A stretch of DNA of 64,000 nt from Anolis carolinensis. Its lineage: Eukaryota. The DNA is taken from positions 248,001-312,000 of the forward strand of contig NW_026943821.1 of the NCBI RefSeq assembly GCF_035594765.1. The letters are read 5' to 3'. How positions within the stretch are numbered: the stretch's first letter is position 1; each line of letters starts with the position of its first letter. Below, piece by piece: positions 27,571 to 48,149 of the stretch. The position numbers were made by a program, and so were the translations under genes. The notes under the pieces were generated by a model. That model was not told where the DNA came from, did not search any database, and was given only the letters and a program-made list of their open reading frames with translations.

Positions 27571-30500
27571 ATGGCAGCAGCACACAAAGGATAAAAGGCA
27601 GCCCCCCCCCCCCGTCCCTCCTTTGCACACTTCCAAACATGTCGAGGCCCCTCCTTCACCTCCCCAAAGCCGTGGGGCCTGCTTTCCTCCCAGTCCCCCG
27701 ATTTCCCACCACAGCCCTCCCTCCCTCCCTCCCTCTCTTTCTCTCTCTCTTTCCCTTTTCTTCCTCCTTGAGAGTATCTTGGCACTCAAGCATAGTGTGT
27801 TTTGTGGGAAGGGGGGGCACCCAGGTATGTCTCCCCAGGGTCCAGCCCTGAGTTTGCCAAGTGCCAAAACTCCCCGTGTGTGTCTGTGTGTCTGGAAGCC
27901 TTTCCTCCAGGTAGGGAGGGGTCTGAGATCCTCCAATTCCTCCCACCCATTAGAAGGAGGAGGAGGAGGATCTGGTTGGGACCTCGCCTGGAAGTCGCAA
28001 GGCGGCTTGGCCGTCCTCCCAGATGCCTCCTGAGAGAGAGAGGGAGGGAGGGAGGGGGGCGAAGGGGGGCGGCGCTGGCGGCACAGAGGCAGCCGTGGCC
28101 GGGCAGCCGGTTTCCTGTTTCCCCCCTGCGCCCCCCCCTGACCGCTCCCCCCTCCCTCCAGTCAGAGAAGTCTTAGAGAAGTTGCAGCGCTCTTGCCTCC
28201 TCCCTCCCTCCCTCCCTCCCTCCCTCCTGCTCTGGGGCTCTGAACGACCCACAGACCGACCAACCACTGGGATGCAAGACAGGGAGGGAGGTAGGGGTAA
28301 GGGAGGACCCCCCCCCTGCTTTGCCTTCGGGAAAGTGCTTTCGTGTTCTCTGGGGTCTCGGGGGTCTCACGCCTCTCTCCTCCCTTTGCCAGGGTTCGCC
28401 TTCCCCGACTGGGCCTACAAGCCGGAGTCGAGCCCCGGGTCTCGGCAGATCCAGCTGTGGCACTTCATCCTGGAGCTGCTGCGCAAAGAGGAGTACCATG
28501 AGGTCATCGCCTGGCAGGGCGACTACGGGGAGTTTGTCATCAAGGACCCCGACGAGGTGGCCCGGCTCTGGGGGGTGCGCAAGTGCAAGCCCCAGATGAA
28601 CTACGACAAGCTCAGCCGGGCACTCAGGTGGGTGCCGGGGGGGCACACGCAGGGGGGGGGCTTCATAGGGAGGGAGGGAGGGGACGGGGCAACTTCCACT
28701 TCAGAAGCACAACAACGAAACTGCCTGTTTTTATTTGCTTCCGTCTTTGGGGCCAATGGAAATTCCCTCCTGCGTCAGTTTCAGGGGAAGCTCTTCCCGC
28801 ACAGAGGCCGCCCACGGCCAGCCCCTTCCTCCCCATGGAAGGGGGTTTGGCTCCAGATCCCTGCGCTGCCCGTGGGAGGGGGCTTCCATTTCCACAGCCC
28901 CGCAGAACATGTCCCCTCTCCCCATAGAACGGGGCCATCATGCCCAGCATGACTCTGCTTCCATTTCCTCCTTCTCCAGGTATTACTACAACAAGCGGAT
29001 CCTGCACAAGACCAAAGGCAAACGCTTCACCTATAAGTTCAACTTCAACAAGTTGGTGCTGGTCAACTACCCGTTCATCGATATGGGGATGGCAGGTGAG
29101 TGGGGCCATTTTTGAAGGGGTGGGGTGGGGTAGCGGGTTGTGCTGGCCCTCCAGGCTGTGATGGTGCCTGTCACCACGCGCTCGGTCTCAGTCCCAGTAA
29201 TGACCAAAACACAGCAAAAGGTATCATGGTCCTTGCTCCTCCCCGAGTAGAGACAGACTGACGATAGTCGGTTACAGCAGGTCATGTGACAAACAGGAGA
29301 AGGTGTGCGGTAGCAGCCCACCCACCACATTGCACGACGGGCGCAATAAGGGTTAAGCGGGGTCCCGTGTCAGAGCGGAAGCCCCCGTGGTCCAGTTTTC
29401 TGTTGCGACAAGGTATATTAGAGGCCGGCATTCCCTCTCTCGTGTTCCTTCATTACACTTCCTCCAAGTTGTTGTGTGCCTTCAAGTTCTAACTGAGGCC
29501 GTAAGGTTTTCTTGACCAAGCCTCAAAGCAGGCTGAGCGGGGTGCGAACCCTGCTCTCTCGGGGTCCCCACTGGTTATTCTGCCTGGCTGGACCAACCGT
29601 AACCGGACTGCAAGGTGACCGCGGTTTCCTCCTTGTGTCTCCGCAGGTGGCGCGGTGCCGCAGAGCGCTCCTCCGGTGCCCTCGGGGGGCTCGCACTTCC
29701 GCTTCCCGCCCTCCACGCCCTCGGACCTCCTCTCGCCCTCCGAAGACCTGCGCTCGCCGGGGGTCTTCTCGGCCGTGGCCAGGCGCCTGGCCCGGGGCTC
29801 GGTCAGCGACTGCAGCGACGGCACTTCGGCCAACTCCGAGGTGGAGGAGTCCCTGGCCGAGGAGCAGCGGCGCGGCGGAGGGGGGGAGGTGGGCTTCCGC
29901 GGGGGGCCCCTGCCGGGCCACCCGCGCTTGGCCCACGAGAGCCTCTTCCGGGTGTACCCCCGCCCCCGGCTGGCCCCCGAGCCCCTCAGCCCCTTCCCGG
30001 TCTCCCCGCTGGCCGGGCCGGCCGCCCTGCTGCCGCCCCCGCAGCTCTCCCCGGCGGGGCTGCCCCTGACCCCCTCCCACCTGAACTACACCCCCTCCCC
30101 CACCCTCAGCCCCATGTTCCCCCCCGGCGGGGGAGGGGGCGGGGGCTCCCACTTCTCCTTCAGCGCCGAGGACATGAAGCGCTACCTGCAGGCCCACACG
30201 CAGAGCGTCTACAACTACCACCTCAGCCCCCGGGCCTTCCTCCACTACCCCAGCACCATCGTCATCCCGCAGCCCCAGCGCCTGGAGAAGCCCCCGCTGC
30301 CGCCCCCGCTGCCGCCCCCGCCGGCCGAGGAGCCCCCCGCCCCCTTCAAGTTCAAGCTCCAGCCCCCGCCCCTGGGGCGCCGGAACCGCGACAAGCAGCA
30401 GGCCCCGCCCTCCGCCGCAGCCCCCGGCGAGCCCACCGGCGGGGGGCCCTCTTCCGCCACGGAGCCCCCCCTCCCGCCCCTCCCGCCGCTGCTGCCCCAG

Positions 30501-30980
30501 ATCAAGGTGGAGCCCATTTCGGAGGGAGAGTCCGAGGAGGACCTCACCGTGGAGGTGACAGACATCAGCGAGGACGAGGACGACGAGGAGGTCTTCAAGC
30601 CCCCCGCAGCGCCCCCCGAAAAGGCCGAGGAGCCGGAGGAGGAGGAAGTGGCGGGAGAAGCTCAGGTTGTGGCCGCCGCTGTGGCCGAAGCCCCGATGCC
30701 GTCCGCGTCCACAGCAGCCGCGATGGAGAGTGGCAAATGCATCCCACTGAAGCTGCGCTTCAAGCGCCGTTGGAGCGAGGACCAGCGGCTGGAGGCCGGA
30801 GCGGGAACCGAGGAGACGGACGACAAGAAGGTCAAGGGGGAGGAGAGTGAGGACAGCGGAGGAGGAGGAGGAGGAGGAGGCGGCGGCCTGGGGGCGGGGA
30901 CAGGGCACGGCGGCCGGCGGATCAGCACCGAGCTGCAGAGGGCAACGGCCGAACTGACCCTGGAGAACCGGGATTCCTAG
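21261..30980 (+). CDS. ERF: ETS2 repressor factor ERF; coding exons 21261-21282, 28393-28627, 28980-29095, 29647-30980 (568 aa)
   Basis: [37 protein letters not shown]...ETS domain...[22 protein letters not shown]; ERK-docking FSF and FKF motifs; C-terminal [13 protein letters not shown]...LENRDS. All junctions are GT-AG and the phases are consistent (1707 nt). Confidence 0.97.
23186..23460. mobile_element. Penelope-like element terminal fragments in tandem and inverted arrangement
   Basis: Repeated tgttgtatgtttttcgggctgtatggccatgttccagaagcattttctcctgaggtttcgccc and inverted ctgaggatgcctgccatag..gcgaaac; further remnant at ~24820-24940. Confidence 0.7.
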
Positions 30981-41449: not shown

Positions 41450-41556
41450 CACATCCGGGGCGGGGCGGGTGTGGATCGGACTACAACTCCCAGCATTCCT
41501 CACAGGCGATGGGGCCTGTTGGAAAGGCTTCCGCAGCTCCCAGGATCCTCAGCGGG

Positions 41557-41621
<65 letters not shown>

Positions 41622-42469
41622 GCACCGACCGGCCTCCTTCCGCTCCCGAGTCCTCCTGTCTTTGGGGCGGGGGCTGCTGGGAGTTGTAGTTCCTTCCGCG
41701 GCACTACTCCTCCCAGCAGCCCTGTCGGAGGGCGGGGCCCGCCGCGCGGCCTGCCGGGAGCCCCTCCCTCCCTCCCTCCCTCGCCCTATTTAGGGGGGCT
41801 GCTCGTGGGCCCGCCCTCCGCCCGACGCTTCCTGCCGCGACGCACGACGGGAGCCGTAGTTTCCTCCGCCGGGTCACGAGACGCGCCTCCCCCTCCCCCT
41901 CCTTGTGCTGCTGCCGCCGTCGCCGCCTCCGCGCGGGGCATGCCGGGAGCAGAGCAAGGCCCGCGGCCTCCCGTCGTGCCCCGCGGCGCCCAGGCCGCAG
42001 CCCGCGCTCGCCTTCCGGCCCGGAGGCCCCGCCATGGAGCGCCGGGGAGGGCCCGCCCGGACCTCCGAAGGTCAGCCCCGCCCCGCTCCCCCCCCTCCCT
42101 CCCTCCCTCGCGGCGCCCCCTCCCCCTCCCTTGGTCGCGCGGCGCAGTCTGGGAAGTGTAGTCGGCGGCGCGGCCTCGGGGACTCGCCCTCCCGTCGTGC
42201 CTTGCGGTGCCTCGCTCCCTCGCTGGCTCGGGCGGCGCGGCGCCTTCTGGGAAGCGGAGTCCGGCTGCCGGCGGAGGGCCGGGCGGGCGGAGGGACTCCA
42301 TTTCCCGTGGGGCTTCGCGGCGGCGGCGGCCTCTCCGTCGAAAGGAGCCGGCCCCCCCGCCCCCCGGTGCCCGCCCGCCTGCCCGCCCGCCGCCGCCCTC
42401 CTCTCTCCTCCTTCCTTCCCTCCTTCCTTCCTTCCTCTCTCCTCCCTCCCCGCCGGCCTCGGCCTCGCC
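41450..42469 (+). promoter_or_regulatory. GSK3A CpG-island promoter with clustered ZNF143-type sites and a (CT)n microsatellite (41561-41620)
   Basis: ACTACAACTCCCAGCATTCC at 41480-41499, TGGGAGTTGTAGT at 41678-41690, further variants at ~41703 and ~41850; GC boxes. Confidence 0.7.

Positions 42470-48149
<5,680 letters not shown>

Follow-up and report, generated by a model that had tools for sequence, protein, structure and literature searches.

Analysis of a 64-kb stretch of Anolis carolinensis DNA (hereafter, the window) revealed that GSK3A has an alternative first exon, which we denote exon 1a and which is spliced in frame onto the same exon 2 as canonical exon 1, in contigs from two studies. 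The transcript that skips canonical exon 1 in this manner is probably translated into a GSK3-alpha of 407 amino acids that AKT and PKA would be unable to inhibit. The observation behind the original prediction, made from the letters of the window, is confirmed, and its interpretation is partly supported. All positions below are those of the window and, apart from the CpG island, to which no strand is assigned, all features lie on its forward strand.

Exon 1a and its junction with exon 2

This region contains the 5′ end of GSK3A, the closest named proteins being those of Anolis sagrei: from DSGK, at the start of exon 2, onwards, 388 of 394 residues are identical to those of the A. sagrei model P0138. 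The gene consists of 11 exons, with AG/GT at all boundaries and no internal stop, and encodes a canonical product of 486 amino acids (51.6 kDa) in which the GSK3 kinase domain is intact, both of the expected stretches, of 22 and 12 residues, being present. The Gly-rich canonical N-terminus, the RxRTSS motif and the presence of ERF upstream (the ERF part of P0248 matches positions 28392-30857) identify the gene as the GSK3A paralogue. Downstream, two genes were recognized by eye, one of the C2H2 zinc-finger and one of the DED type; by human synteny, we take these to be ZNF526 and DEDD2. Fusions of ERF with GSK3A appear in database models from turtle, primate, camel, tree shrew and mole-rat (P0150, P0171, P0173, P0247 and P0248) and could be either annotation joins or read-through between neighbours.

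The coding part of canonical exon 1 (42470..42743; 91 codons plus 1 nt) is rich in Gly, Ala and Pro, its start is near-identical in P0003 and P0006, and a contig of run X7 covering 42566-42744 runs on into exon 2. It carries, where the original prediction had placed it, the RPRTSS pseudosubstrate motif (42503..42520), the role of which is known from the literature and in which Ser17 is the equivalent of human Ser21. Exon 2 (43253..43440), the acceptor of which is common to both isoforms, is where the kinase fold starts, judging from the sequence and solved chains, and exons 3-11 (43532..48149), delimited by AG/GT boundaries and protein identity, extend to the stop codon. The canonical donor at 42743 and the exon 2 acceptor at 43253 are both in phase 1. 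Within canonical exon 1, contigs of X7 and X1 differ from the window at 42652 (A>C), likely an allele.

The coding part of exon 1a (42034..42070), recognized from the sequence and from the N-termini of 14 squamate records, comprises 12 codons plus 1 nt (MERRGGPARTSE-G). It opens with an ATG in a strong context (GCC-ATG-G, with G at both −3 and +4), 436 nt upstream of the canonical ATG at 42470 and in another frame, and ends, with a length of 37 nt, at the donor AAG|GTCAGC (42070/42071), in phase 1 like exon 2. All of this had been predicted, the distance as about 440 nt, and all coordinates hold, as does a product of about 407 residues: joined to the ten downstream exons, exon 1a yields 407 amino acids (45.2 kDa) uninterrupted by stops. 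The intron of the short isoform (42071..43252; 1182 nt, GT..AG, from the sequence and the contigs) encloses the whole of canonical exon 1. With a simple weight matrix, the exon 1a donor scores 2.7, below both the canonical donor at 42743 (4.1) and an unused intronic donor at 42999 (8.0); the donor being weak, the letters by themselves make a thin case for exon 1a. Missed by the original prediction, a further upstream ATG (41940..41942; G at −3, C at +4) lies out of frame: once the short mRNA is spliced, its reading frame is 105 codons long, spans the 42034 start and closes where exon 2 ends. This uORF could lower translation of the short isoform or lead to decay of its mRNA.

The joint itself was observed in assembled runs. 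We compared 7 of the 24 listed runs (X1, X7, X9, X11, X12, X13 and X14), all as contigs, which give neither start, strand, tissue nor level and the RNA nature of which is a guess. One contig each of X7 (study P2) and X11 (study P4) matches 41793-42071 with no differences from the window and continues for 29 and 27 letters, respectively, which are the start of exon 2. The 42070>43253 junction, at which the original prediction could be checked, is present in these 2 of the 7 runs, from two studies; the 29-letter exon 2 anchor occurs once within the 64-kb window. Both loose ends fall just short of the 31-letter bridging threshold, as is expected where two first exons converge in the assembly graph. 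In X7, the canonical exon 1 contig ends with the identical 29 letters as the exon 1a contig, so that a single run shows exon 2 joined to either first exon. Exon 1a, which by these contigs spans 41793..42070 and is single copy, is a real alternative first exon, spliced onto the shared exon 2. The two spliced contigs extend 7 and 13 letters upstream of 41793, into a stretch masked as repeat.

The junction was not shown in the other 5 of the 7 runs (X1, X9, X12, X13 and X14). X9 has unspliced pieces only, X12 and X13 lack coverage of the 42070 donor, and X1 and X14 cross 42070 unspliced and cover other introns too (X1 also crosses the exon 2 donor and the exon 4 acceptor unspliced), for which reason these two look like DNA. 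Over 41650-44750, X1, X12, X13 and X14 contain no spliced contig at any junction and are thus uninformative on 42070>43253.

Given that the joint comes from contigs, with a guessed RNA status and anchors of 29 and 27 letters, one could suspect a chimeric contig or a retrocopy present in DNA. Such an artefact is scarcely credible: the identical GT-AG junction recurs in two studies, the DNA-like runs pass through unspliced, the loci are single-copy, and the junction peptide is found again in an independent model of a related anole, A. sagrei. Exon 1a and exons 2-3 have one match each in G000, by a search that skips very common words, so that a retrocopy does not explain the joint; on this ground, a retrocopy or repeat origin of exon 1a was rejected.

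A different scenario is that the upstream start mainly lowers canonical GSK3A, with transcription from ~41.8 kb running over the canonical promoter and the 42034 ATG blocking the canonical one. As the original prediction foresaw for the unspliced case, use of donor 42743 instead of 42070 leaves ATG 42034 at the head of an out-of-frame ORF of 298 codons that runs over the canonical ATG, and an X12 contig (42129-42347) lies between the two first exons. However, this contig may be DNA or pre-mRNA, in none of the 7 runs does a contig represent a spliced transcript containing both exon 1a and canonical exon 1, and the conserved frame and residues described below would be left unexplained. We consider this scenario improbable and retain the reading of exon 1a as the first coding exon of a short isoform.

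Short N-termini in squamates and other vertebrates

Among 417 proteins compared, taken from the matches listed, at least 14 records have, directly before DSGK or DSSK, a short N-terminal peptide of one type; these are 14 distinct sequences, naming 16 lizard and snake species, and in all 14, the start context is strong, with G at +4. Isoform X2 of A. sagrei (XP_067317752.1) starts MEQRR..GGPARAPEG-DSGK, that is, with the exon 1a junction peptide carrying a longer Gly-rich insert. The 13 other records, from snakes, lacertids, the amphisbaenian Rhineura and the anguid Elgaria, contribute 9 distinct 10-mers (for example, MDNRARWAQG, MDIRARWAQG, MENRSKWAQG, MDKKSRWAQG and MDKKWRWAKG), all of the constant-length form M-[DE]-x-[RK]-x-[RK]-W-x-[QK]-G. 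In the window form, 13 residues precede DSGK/DSSK, 30 in A. sagrei and 10 in the other squamates, and both anole lengths keep the frame. The window exon fits the wider pattern that includes anoles, M-[DE]-x-[RK]...[ASW]-[RK]-x-x-[QKE]-G; the invariant Trp of the other squamate peptides is missing in both anoles, and given this loss, the absence of exon 1 may be of more consequence than the exon 1a peptide itself. The ending [QKE]-G would fit a splice donor rather than read-through of a CAG/TAG acceptor.

A profile was built from the nine 10-mers of squamates other than anoles; it omits the first Met and the last Gly and allows one insertion. On this profile, the window exon scores 8.9 (background −7.1, sd 5.6) and ranks 4th among the 281 possible phase-1 mini-exons on both window strands, being outscored by three background mini-exons (two distinct ends). 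The likeness, which extends over 10 residues, supports orthology between exon 1a of the window and the 10-residue exon of snakes and lacertids. Exon 1a would then be the orthologue of the N-terminus of the GSK3A models of snakes, lacertids, the amphisbaenian and the anguid, which are 402 amino acids long, and the anole peptide would have been lengthened by in-frame Gly-rich insertions, of 3 codons here and 20 in A. sagrei.

Like the exon 1a product, the RefSeq short models, such as A. sagrei X2 and Podarcis muralis X2 (XP_028598156.1), lack Ser21 and are joined to DSGK/DSSK, and those of Ahaetulla prasina (X2, XP_058051095.1) and Python bivittatus (XP_007442352.1) are of the same short, Ser21-less type. 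The short GSK3A isoform is already in RefSeq for many squamates in the form of automatic predictions, among which only in-frame forms become protein records, so that the apparent conservation of the frame is inflated. The squamate-type N-terminus was absent from geckos, turtles, crocodilians, birds, mammals, amphibians and fish among the 417 proteins of the matches listed, which include 15 of the 56 members of the main squamate cluster, so that absences weigh little. Of the conservation outside the anole envisaged by the original prediction, the matching squamate models stood, and the turtle, mammal and amphibian proteins of that set yielded none. Among the best 120 of 399 matches to residues 1-40 of P0130, only the P0008 cluster matches at the short N-terminus, forms internal to clusters being hidden. 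The short N-termini of Pogona (MEWQNLG, P0144), Rhineura X2 (P0132), Crotalus horridus (P0014) and crocodile (P0137), which were low-scoring or left unscored, were not counted as orthologues. On the whole, the short isoform looks squamate-specific.

This pattern bears on the possibility that little protein is made despite a real junction, the transcript being a minor upstream product of a broad CpG-island promoter, with a weak donor and a 41940 uORF that suppresses its translation or has it degraded. The weakness of the 42070 donor, the 105-codon overlapping uORF, the contig depth in X7 (16 for exon 1a versus 51 for canonical exon 1, depth being a poor measure) and the anole peptides, which are of unequal length and no longer have the conserved Trp, all speak in its favour. 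Yet the 10-codon length is constant and residues are conserved in the 13 non-anole records, across snakes, lacertids, the amphisbaenian and the anguid, the frame is kept at both anole lengths, the start context is strong in every one of the 14 records, and X11 assembled exon 1a but not canonical exon 1, a gap that proves nothing. Translation of the short isoform thus remains our preferred reading, and the scenario of a real junction with little protein is, in our assessment, unlikely.

The original prediction pointed to a shorter human GSK3A isoform of compatible size. Such an isoform exists: A8MT37, of 401 amino acids, lacks Ser21 and has 13 residues, reading MGQWIVYPLCSPG, before DSGK; however, the link to exon 1a did not hold, the peptide being unrelated. 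That exon 1a is amniote-wide and equals the first exon of this human isoform is very improbable, the exact coincidence of 13 residues notwithstanding. The A8MT37 N-terminus scores −10.4 on the squamate profile, below the background mean and far from the score of the window exon, so we rejected its first exon as an orthologue of exon 1a, and the squamate-type N-terminus is confined to squamates in the set compared. PLCSPG-like endings as in A8MT37 are shared by the Met-less squirrel, chinchilla and rabbit models, and SPG likewise closes the read-through peptide of turtle models; this suggests that the 3′ end of intron 1 is translated. Thus, the A8MT37 N-terminus likely derives from intron 1 read-through, that is, from an exon 2 extended in the 5′ direction, with the pyrimidine tract and CAG being translated. 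In the window, the matching frame is open over 43102-43252 and contains no ATG, so that A. carolinensis cannot make an A8MT37-type form. A8MT37 and the names GSK3A-202, GSK3A-002 and ENST00000398249, which we take to be transcript names of the human GSK3A short isoform, were not found in the openly accessible papers searched. In one review, human GSK3A is described as expressed from a single mRNA (PMC7226814).

In frogs, the inhibitory serine motif RxRxSSF is missing from 22 of the 22 records with a canonical-type GSK3A N-terminus (P0048, P0049, P0148, P0317-P0320, P0323, P0335-P0342, P0344-P0346, P0348, P0357 and P0416), Xenopus tropicalis included, with the variants RARTEAF, RPRTEAF, RARPEAF, RTRSDVF, RNRSDVF and RARGGGEAF in its place. 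R-x-RTSSF is kept in records from salamander (P0154 and P0347) and caecilian (P0019 and P0155). This looks like a natural loss of S21 in all sampled frogs, and would mean that the same brake disappeared there in a different way; no title on it was found in the literature searched. Frogs also have an alternative basic GSK3A N-terminus of their own, with a Y/H-R-x-K-R-like ending (P0053, P0322, P0325, P0343 and P0412; Hyla, Mantella, Engystomops, Ranitomeya and Phyllobates), which by eye is unlike the squamate peptide. In mouse (isoform X2) and two fish models (P0272, P0277, P0055 and P0401), a shortened exon 1 joined to exon 2 retains RxRTSS but little of the Gly-rich region, and is trimmed the opposite way to the squamate isoform. 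GSK3A models with a typical N-terminus exist for ostrich, goshawk and stork (P0020, P0038, P0390 and P0410); birds are said to lack GSK3A in two reviews (PMC7765659, PMC7226814). Bird GSK3A was likely missed in older assemblies on account of its GC-rich sequence.

Predicted properties of the short isoform

GSK3 is active by default, and phosphorylation of its N-terminal serine is the textbook off-switch in insulin, growth-factor and cAMP signalling. From the 407-aa form, the RxRTSS motif with Ser17 is missing, as predicted, and no RxRxxS/T site occurs in its whole sequence, so that the short isoform is predicted to escape inhibition by AKT and PKA. Thr10 and Ser11 are present in this form, at positions occupied by W and A/E in other squamates. 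In alignments with P0138, the solved GSK3A chains 7SXF and 7SXG start at residue 36-38, within exon 2, so that the kinase fold is whole without exon 1.

The phosphorylated N-terminal serine is described as forming an auto-inhibitory peptide in the primed-substrate pocket (PMC3953950, PMC7765659, PMC12965588), and phosphorylated LRP6 as blocking that same pocket in Wnt signalling (PMC3953950). Lacking a phospho-Ser pseudosubstrate, the short enzyme could not have this pocket blocked in cis and would be active under insulin/PI3K or cAMP signals; it would still answer Wnt/LRP6, which block the pocket in trans. According to PMC7226814, GSK3 is active after N-terminal cleavage, and N-terminal deletion of GSK3-alpha leads to nuclear accumulation. 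By analogy with N-terminally deleted mammalian GSK3-alpha, the 407-aa form, being devoid of the Gly-rich region, would likely enter and accumulate in the nucleus.

The short isoform would be a genetically encoded counterpart of calpain cleavage in mammals. Mammalian GSK3 truncated by calpain or MMP-2 is likewise an active kinase free of Ser21/Ser9 inhibition, as described in PMC7226814, but arises by proteolysis on demand, whereas the squamate form would arise by a choice of promoter and splicing and has an N-terminal peptide of its own. GSK3-alpha S21A knock-in mice, as presented in PMC12965588, also lack N-terminal serine control; there, the change is engineered, affects all transcripts and keeps the Gly-rich region, whereas the squamate form is natural, exists alongside the full-length form and dispenses with the whole region. 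Alternative N-termini also occur in Drosophila shaggy, a GSK3 gene that has several N-terminal exons and is expressed tissue-specifically; its arrangement is of independent origin, and Ser9 loss is not discussed in the passages of PMC7410302 considered. Among the listed titles and abstracts of openly accessible papers, we found no description or functional reading of a reptile GSK3A isoform with an alternative first exon.

Insulin/PI3K control is taught as a defining property of GSK3-alpha and, to our knowledge, the vertebrate bypasses of the serine switch known so far are proteolysis or engineered S21A/S9A alleles. What we describe is a delta-N isoform, made through an alternative first exon, that is predicted to deprive GSK3-alpha of its main regulatory switch throughout a reptile order. 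More speculatively, and with more doubt than conviction, we suggest that a promoter-switched, AKT/PKA-proof nuclear GSK3-alpha has been kept since lacertoids split from snakes, anguimorphs and iguanians, and that frogs reached the same end via a mutated serine. If this is true, tetrapods have twice freed GSK3-alpha from insulin/PI3K control. A natural, conserved, promoter-encoded form devoid of the switch would let a tissue pick the regulated or the unregulated kinase and would provide a natural counterpart against which to judge what the Gly-rich region of GSK3-alpha does. Furthermore, a GSK3-alpha of 45 kDa would run beside GSK3-beta (about 47 kDa) and be unseen by phospho-Ser21/9 antibodies, so that reptile studies using pSer21/9 as a measure of GSK3 activity could miss it. 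The weight of the finding is limited in that the isoform is apparently squamate-specific and already auto-annotated, and in that the human parallel fails.

The promoter region and intron 1

Both first exons lie within a CpG island (41500..42750), with GC of 0.72-0.82 and CpG o/e of 0.85-0.94 in bins from 41501 to 42750. The spliced exon 1a contigs end near 41780-41793, inside the island and with the last ERF coding match about 11 kb away, although contigs cannot show starts. ERF read-through was rejected as the source of exon 1a, given that the last ERF match ends at 30857 and that the contigs have no upstream joint. We propose that transcription of exon 1a has a separate start site, ~650-700 nt before the canonical ATG, where the CpG island has its 5′ end, and that promoter choice would decide between the isoforms. 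A CArG-like string, CCTATTTAGG, one of 4 in the window, occupies 41785-41794, at the 5′ end of the exon 1a contigs, and ZNF143/SBS-like motifs found by motif scan at 41480, 41679 and 42151, which are 3 of the 7 in the window, flank both first exons. Strings resembling the ZNF143/SBS motif occur in squamate SINEs, and those found here may be repeat-derived.

In X1, depth is ~80 over 41650-42364 versus 8-12 over the gene body, all of it unspliced, as a library of the chromatin-accessibility type would give over a promoter.

Intron 1 contains no ATG, and its strong unused donor at 42999 (AAG|GTGAGT) was for this reason rejected as the source of the snake short isoforms; neither a joint nor a loose end occurs there, and the A. 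sagrei model fits exon 1a. In the 3′ part of the intron (42793-43252), contigs of X11 and X12 run unspliced into exon 2. Near that donor lie a CRE-like motif, TGACGTCA, at 42859 and an RFX-like motif, CCTAGCAAC, at 42939, the sole one in the window; the combination of CRE and RFX recalls testis promoters. This part of intron 1 could be a third, intronic promoter or a case of plain intron retention.
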